Assembly (NCBI GenBank): GCA_030141605.1
Contig: JAQGDQ010002419.1
Location: 1-56,156 of the forward strand
Length of the DNA: 56,156 nucleotides
Direction of reading: 5' to 3'
Source of the DNA: Tubiluchus corallicola
Taxonomy: Eukaryota; Animalia; Priapulida
Below, one piece after another: positions 1-37,681 of this stretch (its first letter is position 1; every line of letters begins with the position of its first letter). The notes under the pieces are model-generated. The model was not told where the DNA came from and did not search any database. It saw only the letters and a program-made list of their open reading frames with translations. The position numbers and the translations under genes were made by a program.

Positions 1-299
1 ACATAACCTACACAAGATACTTTTCCCTCTTCGTTTACAAGTAGACGAAACAAAAATTTTTCTTTTTTCCTTTTTTTATATTTATAGGCAAATAAAAGTG
101 TTTCTAATTCCTGATTAATATAGTTAATAGAAGTTTTCAGTTTAGGTAATTGAGTTGGAACCGAAAGTGTTTCTTCCCCTTCTGATAGATGCTTAAGCAA
201 ATTACAATCATTACTATCATTATTAAAATAGTAGTATGTTTTTTGTGAAAAGAGGTTGATGCTATTAGATAATATGAGAATGAGCACTAATTTTTTCAT
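1..299 (-). CDS. Partial (runs off window edge) secreted hypothetical protein, probable orphan immunity protein
   Basis: Read manually: ATG at 299, MKKLVLILILSNSINLFSQKTYYYF...FRLLVNEEGKVSCVGY, open to position 1. Signal-peptide-like N-terminus; lies directly after the orphan toxin remnant. Not in the ORF track. Confidence 0.6.
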   Translation of the reverse strand, partial: MKKLVLILILSNSINLFSQKTYYYFNNDSNDCNLLKHLSEGEETLSVPTQLPKLKTSINYINQELETLLFAYKYKKRKKEKFLFRLLVNEEGKVSCVGY

Positions 300-318
300 T
301 AATTTATAGTTTTTGATT

Positions 319-632
319 TCACCATTTCCATCTATAATTTTAAGAGCATCTGCTGGGTCTATTGAGCTAAATGGACCCACAGAAATATTTATTCCATCAC
401 CAGTAGCGGAAGAGCGTCCCCACCAATCATCTTTTGTAGATGCAGAATTTACATTAACTTCTGTTCCACTAAAACCAGTCACTATATCTTGTAAATTTGC
501 TAACCCTCCAAAGAAATACCCCCGGTTTTGTAGTTTAGAATTCCCCAACTTACCGAAGTATCCTCATTCACCCTGACTGAAATTGTAAGAACCAAAGCCC
601 AAACTCATTGAAAAATCCGTTTGCCCTCCACT
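319..632 (-). pseudogene. Orphan Rhs toxin C-terminal fragment (decayed)
   Basis: Close copy of 3398-3714 in the Rhs gene (SGGQTDFSMSLGFGSYNFSQGE...DALKIIDGNG). Has TGG->TGA stop at 564-566, W->R, and H->R in the WWGHSS motif; truncated before the Cys motif. Confidence 0.85.
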
Positions 633-711
633 ATTAATATCCTAATACACCTGTAATATATAAAATATTAGTAGAAACTCTTATTATACATTGCATATTA
701 TTTTTAATTAT

Positions 712-1227
712 TTATTTGAATTTAATTTCTTTCTCACGTGAAGGAAAAATAATGAATAGACCATCATTACTAATTGTTACTACTATAGCTCCATAAAGAC
801 GCTTATCTGTTATAGCGTTAAATTTTTTTATATTTCTCTTTGAAGGATAAGTAAGTTTTGTCTTTTCCGGTAAAAGCCTATTTACAAAATCTTCATTGGG
901 ACTAATGTAAAATTCTTTGTTCTCTTCTATAATATTTAAGAAACTTCCTTGATAAATAACACCTTTCTTTATAAGGGTGTCTTGTGTTAGATATTTATCC
1001 GATTTTATATAAAAAAGATAATAAACAAAAAAAGTATCATTTGAATGTTCTACAACATAATACGTCGGAAAAAAAGAACGACACTTGACAAAATAATGAC
1101 TTGTATCCGTAAGATATATTTTGTCTATTTCTATATATCTATTGTTTTGGCTAAAACAATCGTATCCAAATAAATGTAAAAAGATAAATAACTTAATAAT
1201 TGATAATAGGTGCTGCATACATTCCAA
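712..1227 (-). CDS. Putative immunity protein, copy 1 (allele A)
   Basis: 171 aa, signal-peptide-like N-terminus, paralogue of the gene overlapping the toxin end; unique C-terminus GAIVVTISNDGLFIIFPSREKEIKFK. Confidence 0.75.
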   Translation of the reverse strand: MECMQHLLSIIKLFIFLHLFGYDCFSQNNRYIEIDKIYLTDTSHYFVKCRSFFPTYYVVEHSNDTFFVYYLFYIKSDKYLTQDTLIKKGVIYQGSFLNIIEENKEFYISPNEDFVNRLLPEKTKLTYPSKRNIKKFNAITDKRLYGAIVVTISNDGLFIIFPSREKEIKFK

Positions 1228-1359
1228 TTTGTCTTGTTAATAATTGAAGATTTAAAAATAATTACCTCCACTATTAATATCCTAATACACCTCTAATATA
1301 TAAAATATTAGTAGAAACTCTTATTATACATTGTATTATTTTTAATTATTTATTTGAAT

Positions 1360-1863
1360 TTAAATACTTTCACGTAAACAATAAATAAAGAATCGACCAT
1401 CATTACTAGTTTTTACTGCTATAGTTCCATAAAGACGCTTATCTGTCATAGCGTTAAATCTTTTTATATTTCTCTTTGAAGGATAAGTAAGTTTTGTCTT
1501 TTCCGGTAAAAAGCTATTTACAAAATCTTCATTGGGACTAATGTAAAATTCTTTGTTCTCTTCTATAATATTTAAGAAACTTCCTTGATAAATAACACCT
1601 TTCTTTATAAGGGTGTCTTGTGTTAGATATTTATCCGATTTTATATAAAAAAGATAATAAACAAAAAAAGTATCATTTGAATGTTCTACAACATAATACG
1701 TCGGAAAAAAAGAACGACACTTGACAAAATAATGACTTGTATCCGTAAGATATATTTTGTCTATTTCTATATATCTATTGTTTTGGCTAAAACAATCGTA
1801 TCCAAATAAATGTAAAAAGATAAATAACTTAATAATTGATAATAGGTGCTGCATACATTCCAA
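1360..1863 (-). CDS. Putative immunity protein, copy 2 (A/B chimera, C-terminal 2-nt deletion)
   Basis: Same as copy 3 except for a 2-nt deletion near 1370 that changes REKVFKFK to RESI*. Confidence 0.72.
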   Translation of the reverse strand: MECMQHLLSIIKLFIFLHLFGYDCFSQNNRYIEIDKIYLTDTSHYFVKCRSFFPTYYVVEHSNDTFFVYYLFYIKSDKYLTQDTLIKKGVIYQGSFLNIIEENKEFYISPNEDFVNSFLPEKTKLTYPSKRNIKRFNAMTDKRLYGTIAVKTSNDGRFFIYCLRESI

Positions 1864-1987
1864 TTTGTCTTGTTAATAATTGAAGATTTAAAAATAATTA
1901 CCTCCACTATTAATATCCTAATACACCTCTAATATATAAAATATTAGTAGAAACTCTTATTATACATTGCATATTATTTTTAATTAT

Positions 1988-2503
1988 TTATTTGAATTTA
2001 AATACTTTCTCACGTAAACAATAAATAAAGAATCGACCATCATTACTAGTTTTTACTGCTATAGTTCCATAAAGACGCTTATCTGTCATAGCGTTAAATC
2101 TTTTTATATTTCTCTTTGAAGGATAAGTAAGTTTTGTCTTTTCCGGTAAAAAGCTATTTACAAAATCTTCATTGGGACTAATGTAAAATTCTTTGTTCTC
2201 TTCTATAATATTTAAGAAACTTCCTTGATAAATAACACCTTTCTTTATAAGGGTGTCTTGTGTTAGATATTTATCCGATTTTATATAAAAAAGATAATAA
2301 ACAAAAAAAGTATCATTTGAATGTTCTACAACATAATACGTCGGAAAAAAAGAACGACACTTGACAAAATAATGACTTGTATCCGTAAGATATATTTTGT
2401 CTATTTCTATATATCTATTGTTTTGGCTAAAACAATCGTATCCAAATAAATGTAAAAAGATAAATAACTTAATAATTGATAATAGGTGCTGCATACATTC
2501 CAA
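1988..2503 (-). CDS. Putative immunity protein, copy 3 (A/B chimera)
   Basis: N-terminal variable patches match copy 1; C-terminal patches match copy 4. Confidence 0.75.
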   Translation of the reverse strand: MECMQHLLSIIKLFIFLHLFGYDCFSQNNRYIEIDKIYLTDTSHYFVKCRSFFPTYYVVEHSNDTFFVYYLFYIKSDKYLTQDTLIKKGVIYQGSFLNIIEENKEFYISPNEDFVNSFLPEKTKLTYPSKRNIKRFNAMTDKRLYGTIAVKTSNDGRFFIYCLREKVFKFK

Positions 2504-2627
2504 TTTGTCTTGTTAATAATTGAAGATTTAAAAATAATTACCTCCACTATTAATATCCTAATACACCTCTAATATATAAAATATTAGTAGAAACTCTTAT
2601 TATACATTGCATATTATTTTTAATTAT

Positions 2628-3143
2628 TTATTTGAATTTAAATACTTTCTGACGTAAACAATAAATAAAGAATCGACCATCATTACTAGTTTTTACTGCT
2701 ATAGTTCCATAAAGACGCTTATCTGTCATAGCGTTAAATCTTTTTATATTTCTCTTTGAAGGATAAGTAAGTTTTGTCTTTTCCGGTAAAAAGCTATTTA
2801 CAAAATCTTCATTAGGACTAATGTAAAATTCTTTGTTCTCTTCTATAATATTTAAGAAACTTCCTTGATAAATAACACCTTTCTTTATAAGGGTGTCTTG
2901 TGTTAGATATTTATCCCAAAATAAATTATAAAAATAATAAACAAAAAAAGTATCATTTGAATGTTCTACAACATAATACCTTGGAAAAAGCATAGGACAC
3001 TTGACAAAATAATGACTTGTATCCGTAAGATATATTTTGTCTATTTCTATATATCTATTGTTTTGGCTAAAACAATCGTATCCAAATAAATGTAAAAAGA
3101 TAAATAACTTAATAATTGATAATAGGTGCTGCATACATTCCAA
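2628..3143 (-). CDS. Putative cognate immunity protein, copy 4 (allele B)
   Basis: Overlaps the 3' end of the Rhs toxin gene, the usual toxin-immunity coupling; unique patches CPMLFPRY and YFYNLFWDK. True start may be the ATG at 3134. Confidence 0.8.
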   Translation of the reverse strand: MECMQHLLSIIKLFIFLHLFGYDCFSQNNRYIEIDKIYLTDTSHYFVKCPMLFPRYYVVEHSNDTFFVYYFYNLFWDKYLTQDTLIKKGVIYQGSFLNIIEENKEFYISPNEDFVNSFLPEKTKLTYPSKRNIKRFNAMTDKRLYGTIAVKTSNDGRFFIYCLRQKVFKFK

Positions 3144-6100
3144 TTTGTCTTGTTAATAATTGAAGGTTTAAAATATGGGGATGAAGATTAAGGGGAAGTG
3201 TTGGTACTCCTACTGACCATAATGACCTTGAAACGTGATTAACACAACTAAATCCCAGTGCATTCCATTTTAATTCACCAACACCCCATAATCCATCTCC
3301 TAATTGTATATTATTAGTCATTTTCTGCATCATTTTAGAATTGACGTTTTGTAATTTTATCACCCAAGTTCCATCATTATTTGGAAAGTTAGGATAATCA
3401 CCATTTCCATCTATAATTTTAAGAGCATCTGATGGGCTCTCTATTGGGGAAGCTGGACCCACAGAAATATTTATTCCATCACCAGTAGCGGAAGAGTGTC
3501 CCCACCAATCATCTTCTGTAGATTCAGAATTTACATTAACTTCTGTTCCACTAAAACCAGTCACCATATCTTGTAAATTTGTTAACCCTCCAAAGAAATA
3601 CCCCCAGTTTTGTAGTTTAGAATTCCCCGACTTACCGAAGTATCCCCATTCACCCTGACTGAAATTGTAAGAACCAAAGCCCAAACTCATTGAAAAATCC
3701 GTTTGCCCTCCACTCAACAAATGATTACCTCCACTATTTATGCTAGAACCACCCGCAATAGCCAAAGTATTCGCAAAAGGAATGCCACTACCTGCTATAG
3801 CTGCTCCTGTCACCGCACTTGCTCCTCCTATTATATACCCAAACATTTCCCAACCTTTAGCATCATTAGCCTCTCCTATCTTGTAGCCACTATATCCTCC
3901 TATTATTGCTCCTACAACGGCTGCTGCTAAAAATATCCACTCCCCATCAGGATCTACAAACATCATAGGGCTATTGCCCATAGCTTGGTAAGGTGAGTGC
4001 ATCTGCAAAGCAGGATCTACTGCAAACCACCTTCCCAAATTAGCATCGTACTGTCGTGCGTGAAAATCGTGCAAGTTAATATTAAAATACTCCAAATGCT
4101 CCTTGCCCGTGTAGAGGTATTGGCTTTTTACATTATCAGGTAGTTCATTTCTACTTAGTTTCTCTATCGTTTGTCCATAAGGGTAGTAAGCCGTTTCTTG
4201 TAGCACCTCGCCCTTGTTGTCAGCAACTACTCGTGTATGCCCCAAGTGGTCGGTGAGTAACACTGCCTTTGTGTCCTCTTCCTCACCCTTCAAGGTATAG
4301 CCTAAAGGGTTACTCACAAGTACAAGCGTATCATTAATATACAGATACGCACCTTGATAATCGTATTTTAGCAAGAGGCTATCGTTTTTGTTAAATATCT
4401 CACGTCTTAAAAGTGAGCCATCCGCTATGTAGGTGTTTACTATCTTTCCTTTGCCTACTACCTCCATTGTATCAGGTAGGTTGATGTCGTTGTAGCTAAT
4501 ACGTAGTCCCTTGTAGCTATCCTCCACCAAGTTACCCAACTCATCATAAGTATAAGTGCCTAGCACTTCTTCGGGTGTTTGGTCTTTTTCATCGTGCGTT
4601 CTGCGTAGGTTCTCTTGTATGGCAAGGGTGTCTTTTAGGTCTATAATGCCGTCACCATCCGCATCCATATAGCTAAACTGTGGGGTACTGGTAATAGTTG
4701 TGTAGGGCTTCCACTCCGTGCCTTGCTCATCTTCGTCCCTTGGGGTGGCTGTGCTTCCATAGTGCAAGCCCAATGGCAATATGTCGGCTGGCTCTACTAA
4801 GCCGCTATTGTCCATATCACCCGGATATACTGTTATCTTTTGCAGGCTTTTACGGTGTAGAGTGGTGAGTTGGTTGCCCGTGTATTCATACTCCAAATCA
4901 TCCAAGTCGCCATACACTTCATTACGTAGATGTCCCTTGCGGTGTAGGGTAGTAATGTTCCCGTGTTTGTCGTAAGAGTAAGCTGTGTTGTAAGTGTTCT
5001 CCTCTTTTGTGTCTTGGTAGTAGATAGCTCTTGTCAGTTGGTTAGCATCGTCATAAGAGAAGGCATAGCCTGATAGGGGTGTGTTTTTGGTCTTCCACTC
5101 CATAGCTGTAATGTTGCCGTTGTACATAGGGGTGTTGCTCATATACTCGTGAGGCTCGTCATACTCTATCCTTTCGTAAAAAAGCTGTTCGTTTTTGTCG
5201 TTGTTAGTTTCTATTTGGGTAAGGCGGTAGTGGAAGTCGTAATGGTAGTTTGTTCTTATTTGTCCTTCATACAGTCGTTCATAGCTTTTGTTGCCTTTTT
5301 CATCGTAGCGGTAATAGGCTATTTCATAGGTGTTTTTGTCTCCCTGCTCTTGGTAGTGGATGGATTTCAACATGTCGTTGTGGTAGTATTGGTAATCCTT
5401 ACGTGCAAAGTGTTGCTTGTCAAAGTCTAAGAAGTTTTTGTAGGTAAATAGTTGTCTTACTCTGCCATCGAAATGGTAGTTGGTAAATACTGCGTCTATT
5501 CCGCCTATGTTGTTGGAGGAGAAGGATTGTACTACTCTGTTGTATTTGTCGTAGTATATTACGCTTTCTATCCATTGGTCGGTGCCAAGTATGCGGGTTC
5601 GTGTGCCTGTTACTTGTGTCTTTACGTTGTGATAGGGCTTGCCAAGGGGTTCGTAGGGTGGTGCTGACTGTGCAAAGGGGAAGTCGTAGTCGTCGTAGTG
5701 GGTTTCTGATAGGGGTATCTTTTTTCCGTCTTTTTTTATGCCTGTGGCTATTACGCGGCTGTAGCGGTCGTAGTCTATGTAGGAGGTGTTGCCTTCTGTG
5801 TCTTCTTCTTCTATCAGTCTGTCTAAGTGGTCGTAGCTAAGGTGTATGGTACCTGCTTGTGGTATGTGTTTGCGGATAAGGCGTCCTTTTTTGTCGTGGA
5901 TGAATTGATAGACGTAATGGTGATTGTTGATATCTCCTTTGGATAGTGGGGGGAGTATGGCGGTAAGGTTGCCATAGTGAAAGTCGTAGTAGTAGAGTGT
6001 GGTTAGGGTTTCTTTGTTTATCTGGCTTTCTCTTTTGAATAGTTGACCTTTGTATGAGGTGTATGTGGTGTGTTGTATGCCTTGAGGGTCGGTGGTACTG

Positions 6101-6663
6101 ACTATGCTTATGTAGCCGGGGGGGTATTTTTTGTCTTCGTATTTTTCGGTGAATGCGTCATATTCTTTGTGTAGGAAGATGTCGGTGTTGGCGTAGCGTT
6201 CAATTTTGGTAGTGTGGTTTGTGCCTATTTGGTATTTCTGTCCAAAGCCACCTTGTTCTATTACTTGACCGCGTGGGTTGAATATGCTTTGTGCGCTGGG
6301 TATGTCTGTGTGGGCTTGGTTTAGTATGTTTTCCCAGTTGTGTAGGTAGTCGCCTTTGATGTTGAGTTGCATTGGCATATAGCTAAAGGGTTGTCTGCCT
6401 GCTATGTCGTATTTATGAAATTCTATGTGGTCGTTTTGGTAGATGGAGGCGTTCAGGTGGTTGGTTTGTAGGGGGCGGTCGGCTCCATCGGTGTAGATAA
6501 TGGTGGTTGAGGCTGCTGCTGGGTTGGTGGTATTGCTTAGCTCATAGGCACTCATCCCTGATACTTTTGCTCGTTTTATGCGCACGTAGTTTTGGTCTCG
6601 GCTCTGCGGGTACAGAACGCTGCACAAGTGCAGAAAGGCCAAGAGTAAAGCAATGGGTCTCAT
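3109..6663 (-). CDS. Rhs-repeat core toxin (DUF6443-like N-terminus, YD repeats, dockerin-like insert, His/Cys toxin tip)
   Basis: Signal peptide; YxDGxxRPLQ N-terminal motif; YNGNI motif; core motifs LTDHLGHTRVV, YYPYG, YLYTGKE, ARQYDANLGRWFAVDP and PYQAMGNSPMMFVDPDG cleavage signature; Gly/Ala-rich hydrophobic segment followed by a variable C-terminus. Confidence 0.93.
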   Translation of the reverse strand: MRPIALLLAFLHLCSVLYPQSRDQNYVRIKRAKVSGMSAYELSNTTNPAAASTTIIYTDGADRPLQTNHLNASIYQNDHIEFHKYDIAGRQPFSYMPMQLNIKGDYLHNWENILNQAHTDIPSAQSIFNPRGQVIEQGGFGQKYQIGTNHTTKIERYANTDIFLHKEYDAFTEKYEDKKYPPGYISIVSTTDPQGIQHTTYTSYKGQLFKRESQINKETLTTLYYYDFHYGNLTAILPPLSKGDINNHHYVYQFIHDKKGRLIRKHIPQAGTIHLSYDHLDRLIEEEDTEGNTSYIDYDRYSRVIATGIKKDGKKIPLSETHYDDYDFPFAQSAPPYEPLGKPYHNVKTQVTGTRTRILGTDQWIESVIYYDKYNRVVQSFSSNNIGGIDAVFTNYHFDGRVRQLFTYKNFLDFDKQHFARKDYQYYHNDMLKSIHYQEQGDKNTYEIAYYRYDEKGNKSYERLYEGQIRTNYHYDFHYRLTQIETNNDKNEQLFYERIEYDEPHEYMSNTPMYNGNITAMEWKTKNTPLSGYAFSYDDANQLTRAIYYQDTKEENTYNTAYSYDKHGNITTLHRKGHLRNEVYGDLDDLEYEYTGNQLTTLHRKSLQKITVYPGDMDNSGLVEPADILPLGLHYGSTATPRDEDEQGTEWKPYTTITSTPQFSYMDADGDGIIDLKDTLAIQENLRRTHDEKDQTPEEVLGTYTYDELGNLVEDSYKGLRISYNDINLPDTMEVVGKGKIVNTYIADGSLLRREIFNKNDSLLLKYDYQGAYLYINDTLVLVSNPLGYTLKGEEEDTKAVLLTDHLGHTRVVADNKGEVLQETAYYPYGQTIEKLSRNELPDNVKSQYLYTGKEHLEYFNINLHDFHARQYDANLGRWFAVDPALQMHSPYQAMGNSPMMFVDPDGEWIFLAAAVVGAIIGGYSGYKIGEANDAKGWEMFGYIIGGASAVTGAAIAGSGIPFANTLAIAGGSSINSGGNHLLSGGQTDFSMSLGFGSYNFSQGEWGYFGKSGNSKLQNWGYFFGGLTNLQDMVTGFSGTEVNVNSESTEDDWWGHSSATGDGINISVGPASPIESPSDALKIIDGNGDYPNFPNNDGTWVIKLQNVNSKMMQKMTNNIQLGDGLWGVGELKWNALGFSCVNHVSRSLWSVGVPTLPLNLHPHILNLQLLTRQIGMYAAPIINY
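4593..4836 (-). other. Dockerin-like domain inserted in the Rhs core
   Basis: VYPGDMDNSGLVEPADILPLGLHYG...YMDADGDGIIDLKDTLAIQENL: two DxDxxGxxxxxD Ca-binding loops each followed by a helix, between the conserved GNQL and YTYDxxGN core motifs. Confidence 0.75.
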
Positions 6664-6679: not shown

Positions 6680-8947
6680 TTATTTAACTCTCATTATAAA
6701 GGCTAATACGTAGTAGGGAGGTATAATATCAAAATTATCAGTAGTTACTTTGTCTGCTGGCGATTTTAACCCGTCCTCTCCTCCATTGCTTACTCTACCA
6801 CTAAAAGAACTATTCGGGTGGGTGTGTCTATCTTCATTATTCTCAGATGTAGTAGTAGCATCTCTGGTTTCATGAACTCCTCTATCAGAGCTCCTGCTAC
6901 CTCCTGTCTTTCTATTAGATGGAGTGGATTCATAAGTATGTGTATGACTCCCTGAAGAGGTTATATGTATACTTGCGTCATTGCCTCTTACAGAATGATG
7001 ATGTTTAGGAATATGATTCTTAGATAATCTAAATGTAGCTGTAGAGCTACTGCTGCCTCCTTCTGCATTCACATTGTTATAATCACCACTGGCAGCATCA
7101 TACGCCACAATAAACCTACCACTTAAGTTGGGGGTCGTTATGAGTGAACCATTAATATCCGTGTCTGTTCTACCATCACACAAAGCCCACCCATCAGGTA
7201 TAGTATTAGGGTCTCCGCTCCACATTATAATGCCTCCTATGGGTATGGTGCCGTAGCCTACAAATTGTCCTTGTGTTTCAATATTGTCTTCTGCTATTAT
7301 TTTGCCTTCTGTGGCAATATCATTGGCAGTTTGTATGCTTTCTACAAAAAGGGTATCTACTTCTACATTGGAAGATATTACTCCATCTACCCTTACTACT
7401 TCACTTACTATTAATGTATCAGCAATAATGCTACTTGTTTCTAAGTTTTCTACTTTCACATAGTTTTGTTCAAAGTCGCCCTCTATGAGTGTGTTGGTTC
7501 CACTGCCTATCATTAGTTTGTTGCTTTCGTTATTTAGGTTCTGCCCTACTTTGTTACCTATTACTATGTTGTTGTAGCCATTGTTCCCTTGTGCTGCTTT
7601 GTCTCCTATGTATATATTGCTACCACCTGTTGTATTGCTTTTGCCTGCTTCGTTGCCAATAAACACATTGCCACTAGCCGACAAGCTATTTAGCCCTGCA
7701 CGGTAGCCTATAGCTATGTTGTCATTGTTGGAAGTAGCATCTGGGTTTATACCTTGCAGTGCCTCTGTGCCAATAACTACATTTCGCTCTCCACTGCTTT
7801 TTTCGGCTGCTTTGCTACCTATCACCACACTATAATTGTTTGCTCCTTCTCGACTAGCGTATTTTCCTATGACTACTGCACCTGTGCTGTTTTTTGCTTT
7901 GGATGCTTTACTACCTACAATTACATTATCAGAGGATAGTGTATATTTCCCTGCCTCGTCGCCTACAATTACATTGTGTGAGCCAGCGGAATTTAATTGC
8001 CCTGCCTCTGTACCTATCATTACATTAGAGGTAGAGGCTTGTGTGGTGTTTTGTCCTGCTCTTTTACCTACAAAGGTGTTGCGTTCGCCTTGTTCTCCAC
8101 TGTTAATCTTTTCTGAGCCTATCAATACGTTGGTAGTATCTATCTCTATACTGCCTGCTATCATATCTTCTAAGGCTTGATTGTTGAGACGGTAAGGCTC
8201 GTTCCACGCTCCATAAGTAGTATCGCCATTTATATCTATTTCTATAAGGCGCAACTTTGCCCATAGGTCGCCTTCCTTTCGTTCTAAGGTCCAATTAGAA
8301 GTAGCCGCACTATCAGGAGCATACATCTTTTCAACTGAGCAAGGGTCTATGGTTACCTCCAATTTACCATCCACTATTTGCAGTGTATTACCCAATACTA
8401 CGCCTCCTCTGGTGCTATGGCTAGCAATAGGTAGTTCATAATAGTTGGCATTGTTTTCTACCGAAAGTAGTTTGGCCAACAAACTATCAGCAAAGTTATT
8501 GTCCGAGTATGTAGCACGATGCTCTATGCCTAGTAGCTTTTGATAGAGGCTATCTATAAAGTTATGCTCAGTGTAGTTCAGACTGTCTAACTTGATTTTA
8601 AGAACGTAAGTAAAATTTTCTTCGGAGTACTTAATACTGTCTAACTTTTCTTTGTGAGAAGTTGTGAAGTTGTGGTCGGTTTGTGAGGTGGCTCTTAGGT
8701 AGATAACACCTTCGCCTTGTTGCCCTTGATAGATTTCTAATCCATCCTCGCCTTCTGCTTTTATCTCATAATTGTAGGTAGCATTGATAAGGTCTTTAAA
8801 ATCCTGTCCATTGGGTTTACTACCATCTTGAAACTTGGAGTGTAATTCACTGGGGGTTTTTCTCTCTATTTGAGAATAAGCAGTGGTGTTAAGGAACACA
8901 AAAGCAATAGCAACTGCAAAAAATTTCACTGTATTTTTCATTATCAA
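6680..8947 (-). CDS. Secreted tail-fibre-like / trimeric adhesin protein with phage tail-collar-like C-terminus
   Basis: Signal peptide; N-terminal ELHSKFQDGSKPNGQDFKDLIN; four NF..KL repeats ending ANYYELPIASHSTRGGV; about 14 YadA-head-like NxxIGxxAG repeats; collar motif IPIGGIIMWSG..IPDGWALCDG..TPNLSGRFIV and terminal PPYYVLAFIMRV. Confidence 0.8.
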   Translation of the reverse strand: MIMKNTVKFFAVAIAFVFLNTTAYSQIERKTPSELHSKFQDGSKPNGQDFKDLINATYNYEIKAEGEDGLEIYQGQQGEGVIYLRATSQTDHNFTTSHKEKLDSIKYSEENFTYVLKIKLDSLNYTEHNFIDSLYQKLLGIEHRATYSDNNFADSLLAKLLSVENNANYYELPIASHSTRGGVVLGNTLQIVDGKLEVTIDPCSVEKMYAPDSAATSNWTLERKEGDLWAKLRLIEIDINGDTTYGAWNEPYRLNNQALEDMIAGSIEIDTTNVLIGSEKINSGEQGERNTFVGKRAGQNTTQASTSNVMIGTEAGQLNSAGSHNVIVGDEAGKYTLSSDNVIVGSKASKAKNSTGAVVIGKYASREGANNYSVVIGSKAAEKSSGERNVVIGTEALQGINPDATSNNDNIAIGYRAGLNSLSASGNVFIGNEAGKSNTTGGSNIYIGDKAAQGNNGYNNIVIGNKVGQNLNNESNKLMIGSGTNTLIEGDFEQNYVKVENLETSSIIADTLIVSEVVRVDGVISSNVEVDTLFVESIQTANDIATEGKIIAEDNIETQGQFVGYGTIPIGGIIMWSGDPNTIPDGWALCDGRTDTDINGSLITTPNLSGRFIVAYDAASGDYNNVNAEGGSSSSTATFRLSKNHIPKHHHSVRGNDASIHITSSGSHTHTYESTPSNRKTGGSRSSDRGVHETRDATTTSENNEDRHTHPNSSFSGRVSNGGEDGLKSPADKVTTDNFDIIPPYYVLAFIMRVK

Positions 8948-8986
8948 ATTCTGTTTTATTGGTGTATATTTATATTTTTTTCATTT

Positions 8987-11900
8987 TCAATTCTCTGTTA
9001 CATATCTTATATGAAAAGTAGTGGCAGTATCGTTTCTAATATACATTTGTCCTATTCCTAACTCTTCTATGTCCAAAGGGTCGTAGGAGGCTTTGTAGTT
9101 ATACTGATATTGTTCCAGAGCGTCTTCATCTTCGTTTCCTATGTTCGAAAGTCTACCAAAATCGTCATAACCATATTTTATAGTCTGCTCTTGTGAAGAA
9201 ACTTCTTGTTGCAGTTGTAGTAGGTTGGTGTATGCATAATTAGAAACATACTTACCTGCATCTACAGAGTGTGTTTTGGGTAGATTACTCGAGGTGTAAG
9301 AATAGGAAATAGGCACGGCATCTTTACCAGTATATTTCAGTATGTTGCCTTTGTTGTCGTATTGGTTGAAGGTGGTTTGTAACTCATAATTATCTGCAAG
9401 GGTATTGTAAGTTTCTATGCTTTCTACAATGTAGTCAGGGTCTTCATTGCTTCCTAATACATAGTTGATTTTTTGTCCTGATAGGAGTTTCCCGTTTTTT
9501 CTTATCTCTTGCTGTACTGGGGCAATAATATGCTTGTCCTCAAAGTATTGTTTTATAGGCTGATTGCTCTGATGCACATAAGTAATAGAAGTTTCTGTGG
9601 TCTCTACATTATCACTGGCAATTACTTTTACAGGTAGGTTTTTGTATTTACTGTATTTTTCATATTCATAGGTGGTAGTGGTAGTGATAGGCTGCCTTGC
9701 ACTTTCGGCATAATCTTCGCGAATAGTCCCTTCCAAAGTTTTAGTAACTGCAGCTATATCATAGGTGCTATGACGTAAAAGATTATCATTTTTATCTATC
9801 TGTACATTGTAGCCTCCAACAGAGTTGCTCCATTTTAAACTATAATTGTTAGAAGTTTTATTGAGTAAGTTATCTTTATTGTCATAAGTTTCTTGTTGAT
9901 AGAGATAAGTCCTATACACATCTCTGTCTGTAATGGTAGAAAAAAGCAGGTAGTAAGAACTAGAAGGATCTTGGCCTGCTATTACATCAGGTTTATTGTC
10001 TTCATCTTTGGCTGTTTTAAAGTAAGAAATAGTTTTGCCTTGTTCTTTGTTTGTCTGCATTACCTTGCCAAAACCTACTATACCCCCGCCTGTGGCTAAC
10101 TGTTCGCCTCCGCCCTTAGGATAAAGTAAATAATGATAATAGTCCCAAAAACGTCCAACCTCATACTTTCTATTTCTGTTGAAAGGTATAATACCTTCCT
10201 CATAGTTATAAGTTATTTCTTCCATTACCTCTCCTTTTTCGTCATCCGTAGCTTTTATATTTTTTATAAAACAACCATATTCACTAGTATAGTAGTCGAA
10301 GGTTTTGTGCATTCCTGTAGGGTAGGTAATGGAGGAAAGCAAACCATTCTCTATATTGTTAAGCGAAGGGGCATAATTATATTCTTCGTACTCGTTTATA
10401 CCCTCGAATTTTACTCTTAACATTTCCTTTAACGATGATGAATATTCTATATTCCGTTCTTCATTTTTTTCATTGCTGTCTATATCTAGCTCACTGGGGT
10501 ATGTAAAGTTGTAAAAAGTAGATTTAGGACTTGTAAAATCTACATAGTAACCATAAAAATTCTGTTTGTAAGAAAGTCTATAAGGTAGTTTACTAGGGTT
10601 AATGTAATTAAATTTAAAAGGATTGATATTATCTCCATAGATGTCTTTCTCCTCTATTTCTGTAAGGAACATCCTTTGTGTAGTACCTGCTTGTTCTATA
10701 AAGAAACTACCACTGTGCCATGCATTTGTTTTAAAACGAAATGCAGGCGAGGAGGTAGTAACAGAATTATGATAATTATAAGTAAATGTATAGCTTTTAA
10801 TAAAATCATCATCTTTCGTTTTTATACGTATTTCTCTAAGAAAACTACCTACCTCATCTATCATATCTTTTCTGTTTTCTACTGTAAAGAATTCTACTTT
10901 GTGGTTGCCTCCTTCTACCTCTTGCAACATAGGGGTATGGGCTGTAACCAAACTTTTAGCAATTCCTATTTCATTACGAGGAACTGGGGACTCATATCTG
11001 TAAAACTTATTATCCTCTATTTTGGGATAAGAATTCTGAATACAAACACCTGACAGCCTACTGCCTTGATAATACCGACTTGTTTGTTTTTTATAAGAAA
11101 AGGTTACTTTATCATTAAAAGCAGGTTGTATTATCTCTATTAAATGCCAAGAGGACCTATAACTATACGATTGACTACTATTGATTACACGTTTTTCCTG
11201 CAAATCCAAAGAATAAGCGGGAATTTTCTTGATTACTATCCCCAGAAAATTTCTCTTCCAAATTTCCTCAAACTTTGAAGTATAACGTACAATTTCACTT
11301 GTATTTTCTATTTCCATCTCTTCTATGGCTTCTTCTTCATAGCCAAATCTGTAAATAGTGCCATCTTCGGCAGTAATAGTAAAGCCATTAATGGTTGAAG
11401 AAGAAGCATCCATCTCTATTTTCAGGTTGTTATCGTTGGCAAGAATATTAATTCTGTTAGAAGCGGCTCTTCTGCTAATAGTGAATTTACCGTTTAAGTT
11501 GCCACAAGAAAAATAAAATATATCAGGGTGGAGATCGTTATCTTTCATTTCTTCGACTGATGCCCAATTATCCCAATAGCCTATCTTTTCTTTTGTTTCA
11601 TTTTTACTATCTACTACACCGTCATTATTATCTTCAATAATAGATTTTACTTGGGTTGTTTTCTCATCGGGGTAGCCTTTTACTACACGAGTAATCACTC
11701 CGCTTGCTTGTAAGTTCCATCCCATACCTACCCAAGAAGCTAGGTCATCTACTCTTACTCCGTTGGAATGATACACCAAGCTAATGGGCACGGATAGGTG
11801 GGTACTTTTCAGGGTGTACAAAGGAATGCCTACATTAATAGCTCCTGTGTAAAGGCTAGAGGCGGTAGAGGCAGAACGTATCAGCCCTGCTACTGTGGGT

Positions 11901-12160
11901 GAGGGTACAGTAACCAAACTACTACTACCAGACAAGGCTCCGAACTCGTCACTGCTCATTGAAGTAGGAACACCTTTATGTAAGGATTTTAACATCAAAT
12001 GACTGGTAGTATCTTCTTCTGCTGCTGTATCTTCCTGTTCAGCTGGAAGATAGGGCTGGGCAGAAGTCAAGCTAAAAGAGAAAAGAAAAAAGAAAAAAAC
12101 ACTCTTTCCTCTCCCATAGATACAAAATAAAGACAAAAATATAAATGCAAGTGTTTTCAT
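8987..12160 (-). CDS. YD-repeat protein, N-terminal half of a split Rhs/TcB-like shell
   Basis: Signal peptide; PSPTVAGL..SLYTGAINVGIPLY..PISLVYHSNGVRV..ASWVGMGWNL..GVITRVVKGYPDE; PDIFYF; LSSITYPTG; terminal YGYDDFGRL. Confidence 0.85.
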   Translation of the reverse strand: MKTLAFIFLSLFCIYGRGKSVFFFFLFSFSLTSAQPYLPAEQEDTAAEEDTTSHLMLKSLHKGVPTSMSSDEFGALSGSSSLVTVPSPTVAGLIRSASTASSLYTGAINVGIPLYTLKSTHLSVPISLVYHSNGVRVDDLASWVGMGWNLQASGVITRVVKGYPDEKTTQVKSIIEDNNDGVVDSKNETKEKIGYWDNWASVEEMKDNDLHPDIFYFSCGNLNGKFTISRRAASNRINILANDNNLKIEMDASSSTINGFTITAEDGTIYRFGYEEEAIEEMEIENTSEIVRYTSKFEEIWKRNFLGIVIKKIPAYSLDLQEKRVINSSQSYSYRSSWHLIEIIQPAFNDKVTFSYKKQTSRYYQGSRLSGVCIQNSYPKIEDNKFYRYESPVPRNEIGIAKSLVTAHTPMLQEVEGGNHKVEFFTVENRKDMIDEVGSFLREIRIKTKDDDFIKSYTFTYNYHNSVTTSSPAFRFKTNAWHSGSFFIEQAGTTQRMFLTEIEEKDIYGDNINPFKFNYINPSKLPYRLSYKQNFYGYYVDFTSPKSTFYNFTYPSELDIDSNEKNEERNIEYSSSLKEMLRVKFEGINEYEEYNYAPSLNNIENGLLSSITYPTGMHKTFDYYTSEYGCFIKNIKATDDEKGEVMEEITYNYEEGIIPFNRNRKYEVGRFWDYYHYLLYPKGGGEQLATGGGIVGFGKVMQTNKEQGKTISYFKTAKDEDNKPDVIAGQDPSSSYYLLFSTITDRDVYRTYLYQQETYDNKDNLLNKTSNNYSLKWSNSVGGYNVQIDKNDNLLRHSTYDIAAVTKTLEGTIREDYAESARQPITTTTTYEYEKYSKYKNLPVKVIASDNVETTETSITYVHQSNQPIKQYFEDKHIIAPVQQEIRKNGKLLSGQKINYVLGSNEDPDYIVESIETYNTLADNYELQTTFNQYDNKGNILKYTGKDAVPISYSYTSSNLPKTHSVDAGKYVSNYAYTNLLQLQQEVSSQEQTIKYGYDDFGRLSNIGNEDEDALEQYQYNYKASYDPLDIEELGIGQMYIRNDTATTFHIRYVTEN

Positions 12161-12173
12161 TTGTTAAAACCTC

Positions 12174-12948
12174 TTAGTTTAAGATAATTTTCTTACTGAC
12201 AATAAAATCATTATAGACCGTTTGTATCAAATAAATACCTTTGGGAAGAAAAGATAAATCAAAAGTAGCTATATCTTTTTTGGGTACGGTGGTTCGCACC
12301 ACAGACCCCTCCTCTCATTGCTCTAACTTCTACTATCTCTTTTTCTACCCCGTATTCATATTTGATATTTACAATACCATTTGTAGGGTTAGGATAAAGT
12401 ATAAATTGATATAGCTCAGTGTTTTTCGAAAGGTGTTTCAAAGAATATTCGCCTATGTAAATAGTATCGGAAGTAGAAAGAAGAGGAATGGCTTCTCCTT
12501 TGTGATTGTTTGCCATATAAGGATGAGCAGACACAGAGATAAAGTCCTTGGTTAAACCCTCTTTTATCTTTACAAAAAGAGAGAGTACATTTTCTTTACT
12601 GTCTAAAAAAAAGTTCTCATTCAAACCTGTAACAGCATAACGCAGCAGCCCTTCACTTTGATTTTGTTGATATAGGTCAATATAATCCTTGCCTCGCTCT
12701 CCAAAAGTGCTGCCTGTGGAAAGTGCAATAGAATTAGTGTCCAAGTCCTGTGGGTTATAACGAATGTCAAAAGCTATACCATAAAGAAGTTCTATATTAT
12801 CTTGAGGGTAGAAATTAAAAACCACCACCTCATCCAAACGCTCACGAGATAAAACAGGAGTAGGAGTTTCTACTTTTAGCAGCTCTTGCGAGAAAACAGA
12901 ACAATTTAATAGAAAGAAAGATATTAAATTTAAGCAAAATAATCTCAT
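12174..12948 (-). CDS. Cohesin-like protein with T9SS type A C-terminal sorting domain (frameshift at ~12306-12315)
   Basis: Start MRLFCLNLISFFLLNCSVFSQ at 12948. Beta-sandwich with LYGIAFDIRYNPQ..GLLRYAVT..ANNHKGEAIPL, then LYPNPTNGIVNI. The shifted frame continues GSVVRTTVPKKDIATFDLSFLPKGIYLIQ..KKIILN* to 12174. The ORF track gives 12259..13032. Confidence 0.72.
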
Positions 12949-13001
12949 AAGACTAAAAGATTTTAAGAAATTAGGTGTAAAATATCTTAACTTAAAAAAC
13001 A

Positions 13002-13033
13002 CAAGTTTACATAAAAAAACTCTTTTGTACAAA
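13002..13033 (-). promoter_or_regulatory. Putative Bacteroidota sigma-A promoter of the Rhs operon
   Basis: Minus strand TTTG (13033-13030), 20 nt, TAAACTTG (13009-13002); one mismatch to TAnnTTTG; supports the 12948 start. Confidence 0.45.
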
Positions 13034-13282
13034 AAAATATATTAAGAATTAGCAATATATTCTAAGTAGTTTAAAACCATCCTTAAATTCAGTTACTGCT
13101 AAGTACAATACAAGTTTTAGAAACTTTCATCTTTTAGTTTTTGGCAATAAAAATAGGCAATGAATGAAAAATTAAATATTAGTATACCATTACCTTATTT
13201 TGTTATAAAGACTATCTTTGTAAAACTTAAATATTTAACTCCTATTTAACCTTTATTTATTAGTCAACACAAACAAGCTAAT

Positions 13283-35177: not shown

Positions 35178-37681
35178 ATGAGAATTAAGTTATTCTTCTT
35201 CATTGTAATGATTTTATATATATCTAATGGGAAATCACAGACCAATAGTACCCGATTAGAGAATGACTGGGAATTTTTAAAAAGTGACTTAGGAGGTATT
35301 TGGGAAGCAGTTCGTTTACCCAAAGTGCCAAAAACATCCAATACCTCAAAATCATCTTCCCCCGAATCAGTCCCACTTTGGAAGGATGTGAAACTACCTC
35401 ATTGTTTCAACGATTTTGATGCTGTAGACCCTTATACGAACTATTACCAAGGGCCGGGCTGGTATAAGACAACTATACAGATTGACAACCCATATAAAAA
35501 CGGAAGAACACTATTGCACTTTGAAGGAGCTGGGCAAAAAACAGAAATATATATCTATACTACAAAAGTAGGAGAACATATTGGAGGCTATGACGAATGG
35601 ACAATAGATATTACAGAAGCTGTAGAAGAATTTAAAAAACACGAAAGATTTGATAAAGACTATGAAGGGAAAATACCCATTATTATTCGTTGTGATAACT
35701 CCCGCGACTTAGAAATGATACCCTCTGACTTATCCGACTTTAACCTATATGGAGGAATACACCGTTATTTAAACTTGGTATATGTTAATGAAGTAAGTAT
35801 AAAAAACTTAGCCATTAACCCTAGTGTTGATGCACAAAGTAAAAAAAGTCAAGTAAAAATAGAAGGAACATTATACAATCCGCAAAATGTACCAACCAAA
35901 AACATTAAAATAGAAATCCACTCTCCCAATAATAAAAAAATACAAACTATAGACATACCTTCTTCTCAAGTTAAGAACAACACATTTTCAACATCATTTG
36001 TTATAAAAAAACCAAACTTATGGTCGCCTGAAAACCCTAATTTATACCAGTGTGTTGTTAAAATTGAGAACCCAAAAGGAATAGAAGAATATAAAGACAA
36101 TTTTGGGATAAGACATTTTGAGTTTATAGAAAAAGGACCTTTTAAATTAAATGGAGAAAGATTATTGTTGAGAGGAACACATAGGCACGAAGACCACACA
36201 AGTGTTGCTGCTGCTATGACAGAAGAAATGATGCGAGAAGAAATGATAATGATGAAAGAAATGGGAGTTAACTTTATTCGTTTAGGTCATTATCAGCAAT
36301 CAAGAATCATACTCAACCTATGCGATAGCCTTGGAATACTGGTATGGGAAGAAATTCCCTGGTGTAGAGGAGGACTGGGAGGTGAAAAATACCAACAGCA
36401 AGCCAAAAGAATGCTTGTCAATATGATAACACAGCATAAAAACCACCCTTCTGTAATTATTTGGGGGTTAGGAAATGAAAATGACTGGCCTAACGACTTC
36501 CCTGAATTTACTAAAGAAAACTTCGATGAAGAAAAAATACGAACCTTTATGAAAGAGCTGAACGACCTATCCCACAGCTTAGATGATAGCAGAAAAACGG
36601 CTATTCGTCGTTGCACTTTCTGTGCAGATATCGTAGATGTATATTCTCCCTCAATATGGGCAGGATGGTACAGAGGAAAATTTACTGACTACAAAGAAGT
36701 ATCTCGTAAAGAAATAGAAAAGGTAAACCATTTCTTACACGTAGAATGGGGAGCAAGCAATCACGCAAGGAGACACTCTGAAAACCCTGACAAAAATTTA
36801 GAAAATATAAAAACTGGAGAAGCAGATGAACGAGACGGAGACGCTTCCTTGGTTGGAGGAGACCCAAGAGCATCAAAAGATGGAGATTGGTCAGAAACTT
36901 ATGCTTGTAACCTGATAGATTGGCACTTAAAAGAACAAGAAACGATGCCTTGGCTAACAGGAACAGCCTATTGGCCTTTCAAAGACTTTTCCACACCCCT
37001 TCGCCCTGAAAATCCTGTGCCATATGTAAATCAAAAAGGAGTAGTTGAACGAGACCTTACCAAAAAAGAAGCATACTATGTTTTTCAATCCTACTGGACA
37101 GGAAAACCAATGGCACATATTTATGGACATACTTTTAAAACAAGGTGGGGAGAAGCAAACGAAAAAAGTTAATAAAAGTTTATTCAAACTGTGAAGAAGC
37201 AGAATTGATAGTAAACGGCAAAAGCTATGGTAAGAAAAAAAGAAACTCACAAGACTATCCTGCAGCAGGACTAAGGTGGAACGTGCAACTCAAAGAAGGA
37301 CAAAATGAAATAAAAACCATTGGATTCAAAAAAAATAAACCAGTGGCTACCGATAATATAATACAAAATTATCAAACAAATAAATGGGACAAACCATCCA
37401 AACTAGAAATAAGCAAGTATTACAAAGCAGAAAACGAATATTGGATAGAAGTAATAGCTAAAGACAATAAAGATATTCAATGCCTTGATGCTAAAAACTT
37501 TGTAGAGTTCGACATAACTGGAGATGGCACATTACTTGGAAACCTTGGCACATCAACAGGAGCATTAAAAGTGCAGTTATACAATGGGCGAGCCAAAATA
37601 GGCTTAAAACACAAAGAAGGAAAAAGTATAGTTTCTGTAAAGTCCGAAGGATTAAAAACAGTATTTATTAACATCGAATAA
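35178..37681 (+). CDS. GH2 glycoside hydrolase, split by a frameshift at ~37162-37167
   Basis: LLHFEGAGQ, LRGTHRHED, FIRLGHYQQ, WGLGNEND. ORFs 35178-37172 and 37145-37681 join (GEANEKKLIKVYSNC) if one A is added to the A6 run. Confidence 0.88.

Follow-up and report, generated by a model that had tools for sequence, protein, structure and literature searches.

Introduction

In Tc/ABC toxins, a YD shell made from two genes, or from one fused gene, encloses an auto-cleaved toxin, with a separate binding component. Rhs and TANFOR toxins of Bacteroidota have leaders but no type IX secretion system (T9SS) sorting signal, and the available parts of the papers describing them leave open both the exit route and the way in which targets are found (PMC7073777, PMC8125069). 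The Apibacter study, in the sections accessible, reports a neighbourhood of Rhs and T9SS genes without a coupling mechanism (PMC8125069). In extracellular contractile injection systems (eCIS), tail fibres are held by N-terminal anchors of a type catalogued as eBAP1 and eBAP2 (PMC12923769). The portions available of the structural reports describe residues 29-55 of Pvc13 bound to the Pvc12 baseplate in a solved structure (PMC12546770), a C-terminal extension of Cis11 touching the Cis13 trimer in Anabaena (PMC8894136), and SalCis13 modelled on SalCis11 via its N-terminus (PMC13266070). Here we analyse a 56,156-nucleotide stretch, hereafter the window (contig JAQGDQ010002419.1, positions 1 to 56,156, of the Tubiluchus corallicola assembly GCA_030141605.1), in which a gene for a leader-bearing, phage-like fibre lies inside a Rhs toxin operon. 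We consider it rather probable that this fibre aims an antibacterial Rhs toxin particle that has three parts and is carried by T9SS. Since the locus combines an exported fibre, a shell motif like that of baseplates and a dockerin with a matching cohesin, it is likely that the fibre directs the toxin and that the cohesin protein takes it out of the cell. The genes form a tight run on the minus strand:

12174..12951, minus strand: carrier, in which a cohesin-like domain stands between a leader and a T9SS type A sorting domain (Pfam, BLAST, hhalign); the frame shifts near 12310
8987..12160, minus strand: RhsN, leader and N-terminal half of the YD/Rhs shell, 1057 residues (family profile)
8990..9064, minus strand: C-terminal tail of RhsN that bears the GIG.M.I motif and is a candidate peptide for docking the fibre (alignment with controls)
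6680..8947, minus strand: fibre gene, 755 residues from a TTG; translation probably begins at the ATG at 8941
8873..8941, minus strand: fibre leader of Sec/signal peptidase I type, ending AYS/Q (hydropathy heuristic)
8768..8860, minus strand: eBAP-like baseplate anchor motif, fibre residues 30-60 (profile search)
8438..8680, minus strand: fibre shaft, four NF..KL repeats (repeat count)
7523..8140, minus strand: 12-repeat beta-solenoid, or beta-roll (repeats and model)
6683..7252, minus strand: tail collar and hypervariable HxH tip (Pfam and PDB profile matches, identity comparison)
3109..6663, minus strand: RhsC, with a leader-like start, DUF6443, YD core, DPDG (residues 904-907), hydrophobic segment and C-terminal domain of about 277 residues (Pfam)
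4570..4854, minus strand: dockerin-like insert in RhsC with two DxDxDG calcium loops (Pfam, PDB profile)
2628-3143, 1988-2503, 1360-1863 and 712-1227, minus strand: four immunity-like genes with leader-like N-termini, 92-100% identical, in tandem copies of about 640 bp spanning 625-3143
3..548, minus strand: orphan, incomplete copy of the C-terminal region of the toxin, cut off by the window edge

An exported fibre with an eCIS-type anchor

The fibre open reading frame (ORF) lies 40-46 bp past the RhsN stop (8987) and 16 bp ahead of the RhsC start (6663). An earlier note, made from the DNA alone, had proposed that its product is a phage- or eCIS-type fibre with a Sec signal peptide, domesticated to serve the Rhs toxin. 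The leader is indeed recognizable by its basic n-region, a 10-residue hydropathy of 3.05 and an AYS/Q site at residues 25/26; this call comes from our own hydropathy heuristic, not from SignalP. By this measure, leaders are found in all seven Rhs-linked fibres tested versus none of nine genes that have the anchor but belong to eCIS, prophage or other loci. The fibre thereby departs from eCIS fibres, which are normally assembled in the cytoplasm and have no Sec leader.

Behind the leader, the note had read an anchor-like motif. We built our own profile of residues 30-68 from seven sequences, and its sole PDB matches are three contractile-injection fibre chains: 9QGO at residues 31-53 (E 0.015), AfpX13 in 8UUR (E 0.058) and All3316 in 7B5H (E 1.5), the last reaching E 2e-4 once eCIS and phage rows were added. 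The stretch hit in Pvc13, residues 31-53, corresponds to the baseplate-binding part of that protein, as described in the available text of PMC12546770. Hence the fibre possesses the N-terminal helical baseplate anchor of about 50 residues that marks eCIS fibres.

The shaft repeats are also as predicted, with NF..KL copies starting at residues 93, 111, 129 and 151 (spacing 18, 18 and 22), and the stretch that follows them matches a phage-type fibre gene in another locus (L221). Residues 273-460 hold 12 repeats spaced 16-21 residues apart, which the monomer model renders as a beta-solenoid (pLDDT 50-69 there and 38 overall, a poor, single-sequence fold). The beta-roll of the earlier note is thus retained, with the YadA type as one candidate for it. 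Fold searches with this low-confidence model returned generic solenoids, with CbpF at rank 11 (Z 11.5, root-mean-square deviation (rmsd) 8.7), and PF05658 is present in some partial fibre homologues. At the C-terminus, the collar is matched by Pfam Collar (E 1e-4), by PDB entries 6OV6 (E 2e-6) and 9NXK (E 5e-5) and by PHROG tail families (down to 1e-15), and the His-rich tip expected from the note has HxH motifs at residues 649, 668 and 708. No C-terminal hydrophobic anchor was seen in the fibre sequence. At the sequence level, the fibre matches three-chain PDB entries (6OV6, 9NXK and 9QGO), and by homology we describe it as a putative trimer.

Full-length fibres occur in Rhs cassettes and exchange their tips

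Full-length fibre homologues were found in 6 of 97 genomes of the family and on one metagenome contig, and all seven loci are Rhs cassettes. Linkage to Rhs, a point on which the earlier note had staked its account, is therefore invariable among them. The general gene order differs from that of the window. The relatives have the carrier, then the fibre, then a fused Rhs gene (about 2200-2400 residues where complete), so that placement of the fibre between two shell genes, correct for the window, is peculiar to it. The DNA stops inside the Rhs gene in one relative (L075) and starts inside the fibre in another (L104). A gene combining a cohesin with a C-terminal sorting domain (CTD) stands directly upstream in all six relatives whose DNA reaches that far, as it does in the window. 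Overall, the parts of the cassette have been kept together despite differences in gene order and fusion and Rhs cores that are about 41% identical. Among 120 listed fibre matches, the anchor is present only in five full-length proteins of the cassette type. The anchor profile gave seven matches in a sample of 401 genomes of the phylum (G001 plus eCIS, prophage or other loci), and a shaft search in a sample of 391 genomes of the order gave G001 and one weak phage-type match; neither sample held a further cassette. The fibre is present in Labilibaculum and Ancylomarina, which are culturable Marinifilaceae.

A scan with the whole-fibre alignment, driven by collar patterns, found a full-length homologue at only 1 of 78 loci (L075, Marinifilum), and the other 77 showed no Rhs gene in the fetched DNA. 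Short leader-bearing collar-tip proteins (300-540 residues) are widespread in Bacteroidota and Verrucomicrobiota outside any phage or Rhs context (L001-L078). As judged from these sequences, the combination of a leader and a collar is by itself common and mostly unrelated to Rhs.

The earlier note had suggested comparing fibres between homologous Rhs loci. In one pair (L095/L097), shaft and roll are 88% identical and the tips 28%; in another (L092/L095), the figures are 63% and 61%. Fibre tips vary far more than shafts and independently of them, whereas collar identity between fibres stays at 66-94%. Shaft length is widely variable, with fibres ranging from 755 to about 1560 residues. Taken together, the seven Rhs loci, the hypervariable tip and the candidate docking motif described below support the idea of a domesticated fibre that serves the toxin.

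Small genes are inserted between the fibre and Rhs in three relatives (L075:5196-5573, L094:12613-12990 and L104:2699-4012); we take them to be GxxExxY-like or transposase-like. The fibre of L075 is split over two ORFs.

A candidate fibre dock on the Rhs shell

Alignment with the controls shows that the window RhsN has a tail beyond its last YD strand; a GIG.M.I motif in this tail is shared with the fused relatives, where it lies at the junction of the two halves. This motif is present in all seven readable fibre-linked Rhs proteins. By contrast, motif, anchor and dockerin are all lacking in 21 control DUF6443 loci, which comprise 20 from the best-scoring of 54 positive genomes plus L100. From these comparisons, the GIG.M.I tail is a candidate fibre-docking peptide.

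We next looked for the motif in eCIS baseplates. It terminates an Afp11-like protein directly ahead of the anchor gene in two loci (L167 and L203), and precedes anchor genes in two prophages (L168 and L067), with a variant form in L166. In a sample of 30 Afp11-like loci, from which two mis-picked ones were dropped and one regular-expression match away from the protein end was discarded, inspection by eye showed that the motif closes 2 of the 4 proteins whose gene precedes an anchor-like gene, and none of the 24 encoded ahead of an Afp12-like gene. In addition, the combined motif profile weakly matches the C-terminus of SalCis11 (9RCE, residues 1296-1309, E 1.7). Nothing was found with the Rhs-only peptide profile against PDB or with a single motif peptide against 50,697 phage records; the last 99 residues of the L167 baseplate protein gave no relevant PDB chain, and looking for split-type RhsN proteins with comparably long tails likewise gave none. 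The contact made by the peptide may already be visible in Supplementary Fig. 3 of PMC12923769, which concerns eBAP2 on Pvc11-type proteins.

In Mu-like prophages of Bacteroidota, a GIG.W.I-type motif occurs on a small tail gene (L168:10310-10681, L067:7884-8177), with one to three anchor-bearing fibre genes downstream.

A probable dockerin-cohesin module divided between cargo and carrier

The earlier note's account missed the part of the cassette that involves cohesin, dockerin and T9SS. The carrier is matched by Pfam Cohesin (E 0.084) and Por_Secre_tail (E 0.003), and it resembles the cohesin of a tandem protein, L126 (BLAST E 6e-14; hhalign 87%, E 4e-6). The natural tandem L126 folds at pLDDT 81 and pTM 0.79, and the 17 best fold matches of its model are all cohesins (Z 13.0, rmsd 2.8, 136 residues aligned). 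The carrier is thus predicted to have a cohesin fold, modelled on this relative and carried over by BLAST and hhalign. With a leader and a C-terminal sorting domain, the carrier has the make-up of a T9SS type A substrate, its sorting domain running on in another frame after the shift near 12310. This frameshift is likely an error, because it sits in a homopolymer whose length differs in a contig from the same sample, consistent with an intact frame. According to Pfam, neither the shell halves nor the fibre has a sorting domain, which the carrier alone possesses; clear leaders are seen in the carrier, RhsN and the fibre, and a leader-like start in RhsC.

The RhsC insert has the duplicated calcium loop-helix of a dockerin. 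Pfam Dockerin_1 is matched by 6 of 6 Rhs inserts (best 3e-6), the window copy alone falling under the Pfam cut-off, and the best PDB matches are dockerins. With our own profile, the same dockerin followed by a cohesin-like domain within one chain was found in 46 of the 150 top representatives, and Pfam Cohesin in 7 of 23 dockerin-cohesin tandems. The dockerin profile was matched in 46 of 401 genomes and by 4707 representatives. Because the same modules are fused in one chain in relatives, the RhsC dockerin would be expected to bind the carrier cohesin, and the cassette looks like a dockerin-cohesin module whose two parts have come to lie on separate proteins, the cargo and the carrier.

In T9SS cargo of Bacteroidota, a frequent C-terminal arrangement within one chain is a VWPGD-type dockerin, then a cohesin-like domain (or, in several, a short helical stretch), then the sorting domain (L105-L134; P0122-P0271).

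Toxin shell, immunity-like genes and control operons

RhsN itself has no Pfam match. RHS_repeat is nevertheless matched by 11 of the 14 aligned RhsN members, and their profile matches solved Rhs shells. Overall, the operon has the features by which Rhs polymorphic toxins are recognized: YD shell, Rhs core, DPxG, variable C-terminal domain and downstream immunity-like gene. The role of the four downstream genes would be immunity, as suggested by their position. Their leader-like starts suggest a bacterial, extracytoplasmic target of the toxin.

Several features of the control operons deserve mention. By eye, 3 of 20 hold an unrelated leader-bearing fibre (L138:13292-14353, L145:4924-6501, L149:6478-9258). 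All three lack the anchor, and that of L138 lies between its two shell genes; the chaperone-like coil at their C-termini is presumably S74-like. Seven of the 20 begin with a CTD gene (five by Pfam, two by our own profile). In about 8 of the 20, the T9SS-CTD gene is replaced as first gene by that of a leader-bearing protein of about 450-520 residues belonging to no Pfam family (L138:6575-8041, L142, L143, L146, L149, L152, L153 and L154). Most of these proteins end in an aromatic residue, as outer-membrane barrels do, and they are possibly dedicated exporters.

The locus and its host

SusC/SusD pairs, a porZ gene inside the window (Pfam scan) and T9SS sorting domains mark the host of this DNA, by its gene content, as a member of Bacteroidota. 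As the earlier note had observed, there are no tail or baseplate genes: none of these families was found in the 33 window ORFs scanned. A contig from the same sample, which may be the source, covers fibre and RhsN (7456-11655) without any difference. An assembly chimera is rejected, as contigs of one sample bridge both the RhsC-fibre and the fibre-RhsN junctions. Contig depth is greater over RhsC than over the fibre; this is not a copy number and was not used. A prophage remnant is likewise rejected, given the absence of tail neighbours, the intact leader and the conserved cassette.

Upstream of the carrier, short stretches at 12995-13040 match a 4.2-4.7 kb contig of high depth in one run, and are possibly a mobile-element end or a repeat. 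Farther on, 13283-43834 is a large polysaccharide-use locus with two SusC/SusD pairs, two alginate-lyase-family genes, GH88, GH2, CBM96 and UxuA, whose first GH2 gene is split over two ORFs (35178-37172 and 37145-37681).

Proposed mechanism and rival explanations

We propose that the components would be exported by Sec and fold in the periplasm, where RhsN and RhsC would close one YD shell around the DPxG-cleaved toxin. A fibre trimer would then attach to the tail of RhsN in the way that Cis13 attaches to the extension of Cis11, and the RhsC dockerin would bind the carrier cohesin, so that the particle leaves with the T9SS substrate or is held by it at the surface. The tip would recognize a competing bacterium by its surface, upon which the toxin would be released, while exported immunity-like proteins would protect the producer. 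In a bolder version, to which we give slightly less than an even chance, this is a baseplate-free particle: the Rhs shell acquired the eCIS joint between fibre and baseplate, with the anchor on an exported fibre and the baseplate-end peptide on the shell itself, together with a split dockerin-cohesin clasp by which cargo lacking a sorting signal rides T9SS, it is guided to receptors by exchangeable tips, and the other fibre-plus-Rhs operons among the controls are parallel inventions.

Several observations weigh against an aimed, T9SS-carried particle. The weakest step would be the passage through the T9SS pore of a particle that has no sorting signal of its own. The seven co-occurrences of fibre and Rhs represent one origin, not seven, since the Rhs cores of the window and of the six relatives form a single clade (support 100 in a quick tree with 18 control rows). 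GIG.M.I is short, with a chance expectation of about 0.005 per 1000 residues and 16 real matches (some of them duplicates) versus 1-8 in shuffled sequences; the PDB match of its profile lacks significance, and four residues are inserted in the window copy. The motif is nearby in only 5 of 10 non-Rhs anchor loci, and L207 has it with no anchor gene in 14 kb. The Pfam scores of the window cohesin and dockerin are below the curated cut-offs, and the window sequence has a frameshift, probably an error, in the carrier gene. The C-terminal domain of RhsC matches unnamed Bacteroidota clusters only. Finally, the protein that best matches the anchor, Cis13, fixes its machine to a membrane and not to a target, according to the accessible part of PMC8894136.

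This last point bears on a first alternative, in which the fibre docks on the shell but acts as a spacer, an adhesin or a producer-side tether instead of choosing the target. The link of Cis13/All3316 to the thylakoid membrane (PMC8894136), the modelling of SalCis13 as a membrane-associated anchor in the available text of PMC13266070, and the wide variation in shaft length would all suit it. Yet the collar and HxH tip resemble receptor-binding fibres of phages, tips are exchanged independently of shafts, the fibre shows no C-terminal hydrophobic anchor, and a producer-side tether is already provided by the cohesin-CTD protein; we regard this alternative as unlikely. The fibre could instead be an independent leader-plus-collar surface adhesin that travels unbound with the cassette, GIG.M.I being a mere linker. 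This would agree with the 77 collar-tip loci that show no Rhs in the fetched DNA, many of which have leaders, with the leader-bearing trimeric adhesins reported for Bdellovibrio (in the portion available of PMC10769870), with the single origin of the linkage, and with the position of the motif at the junction of the halves in fused Rhs. The restriction of the anchor, among the 120 listed fibre matches, to five full-length cassette-type proteins argues the other way, as do the position of the gene inside an operon with gaps of 16-46 bp and the behaviour of the motif itself, which the split window RhsN retains though it needs no linker, whereas the control RhsN lack it. We hold this to be quite unlikely.

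A last explanation accepts the particle but not its passage through T9SS: it would be periplasmic and leave by vesicles or lysis, or be captured outside by the carrier, or the fibre would bind the carrier and not the shell. The absence of a sorting domain from the shell halves and the fibre favours this, and the first gene of no known family in about 8 of 20 control operons indicates that export routes may differ. Against it stand the dedicated cohesin-CTD gene in the window and in every readable relative, the CTD gene that also opens 7 of 20 control operons, and the Rhs-T9SS neighbourhood reported in Apibacter (PMC8125069, as far as available). It appears very unlikely, and a fibre-aimed toxin carried out on the cohesin protein remains the reading we favour.

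Comparison with known systems

With the eCIS fibres Pvc13, AfpX13 and Cis13, as described in the available parts of PMC12923769, PMC12546770 and PMC8894136, the window fibre shares the two-helix anchor motif at the mature N-terminus and the modular shaft. It also shares the collar/needle tip of Pvc13, and its proposed partner has a baseplate-like C-terminal motif. However, a Sec leader precedes its anchor, the proposed partner is a Rhs shell, the window is devoid of tube, sheath and baseplate genes, and its neighbours in seven homologous loci are carrier and Rhs genes. The fibre would therefore work like an eCIS fibre, yet its leader and the lack of an eCIS locus set it outside that class. The eBAP paper contains neither 'Rhs' nor 'signal peptide' in the available part of its own text (PMC12923769). 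The MAT fibres of Bdellovibrio, as far as their description is accessible (PMC10769870), are likewise leader-bearing mosaics of phage-like modules with varied tips for recognizing other bacteria. They differ in that they are cell-surface adhesins with their own N-terminal domain of about 130 residues and often an S74 chaperone, whereas the window fibre combines an eCIS anchor with a collar tip and is encoded in a toxin operon.

On the toxin side, the T9SS-neighbouring Rhs operons of Apibacter and the DUF6443 split operons share with the window a leader-bearing YD shell (split or fused), DPxG, a C-terminal toxin, immunity genes and an adjacent type A CTD gene, in the available account (PMC8125069). 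What sets the window apart is a CTD protein with a lone cohesin, a dockerin and GIG.M.I on the shell, and the addition of an anchor-bearing fibre. TANFOR polymorphic toxins are also leader-bearing Bacteroidota toxins beside T9SS substrates, with a hypothesized use of T9SS (PMC7073777, in the part available); unlike them, the window proteins have no TANFOR domain reported by Pfam, and a physical coupling module is visible. No TcA-like gene, as would be expected of Tc/ABC toxins, occurs in the window ORFs scanned, and the immunity-like genes point to bacterial targets. The coupling module shares with cellulosomal cohesin-dockerin pairs (PDB 3UL4, 1OHZ) the cohesin fold (Z 13, on the relative L126) and the duplicated calcium-loop dockerin. 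It differs in its location on a toxin shell and a T9SS substrate, in the fusion of both modules in one chain in many relatives, and in a longer inter-loop linker with a conserved Trp.

In the open-access literature (PMC and bioRxiv main texts), we found no account of a Rhs protein equipped with a fibre, dockerin or cohesin. The cassette, which belongs with the Bacteroidota Rhs toxins, offers candidate answers, in recognizable modules, to both toxin exit and targeting. For eBAP2-type anchors of eCIS and prophages it indicates that the minimal partner may be a short peptide, and it suggests a route by which tail fibres leave tails.

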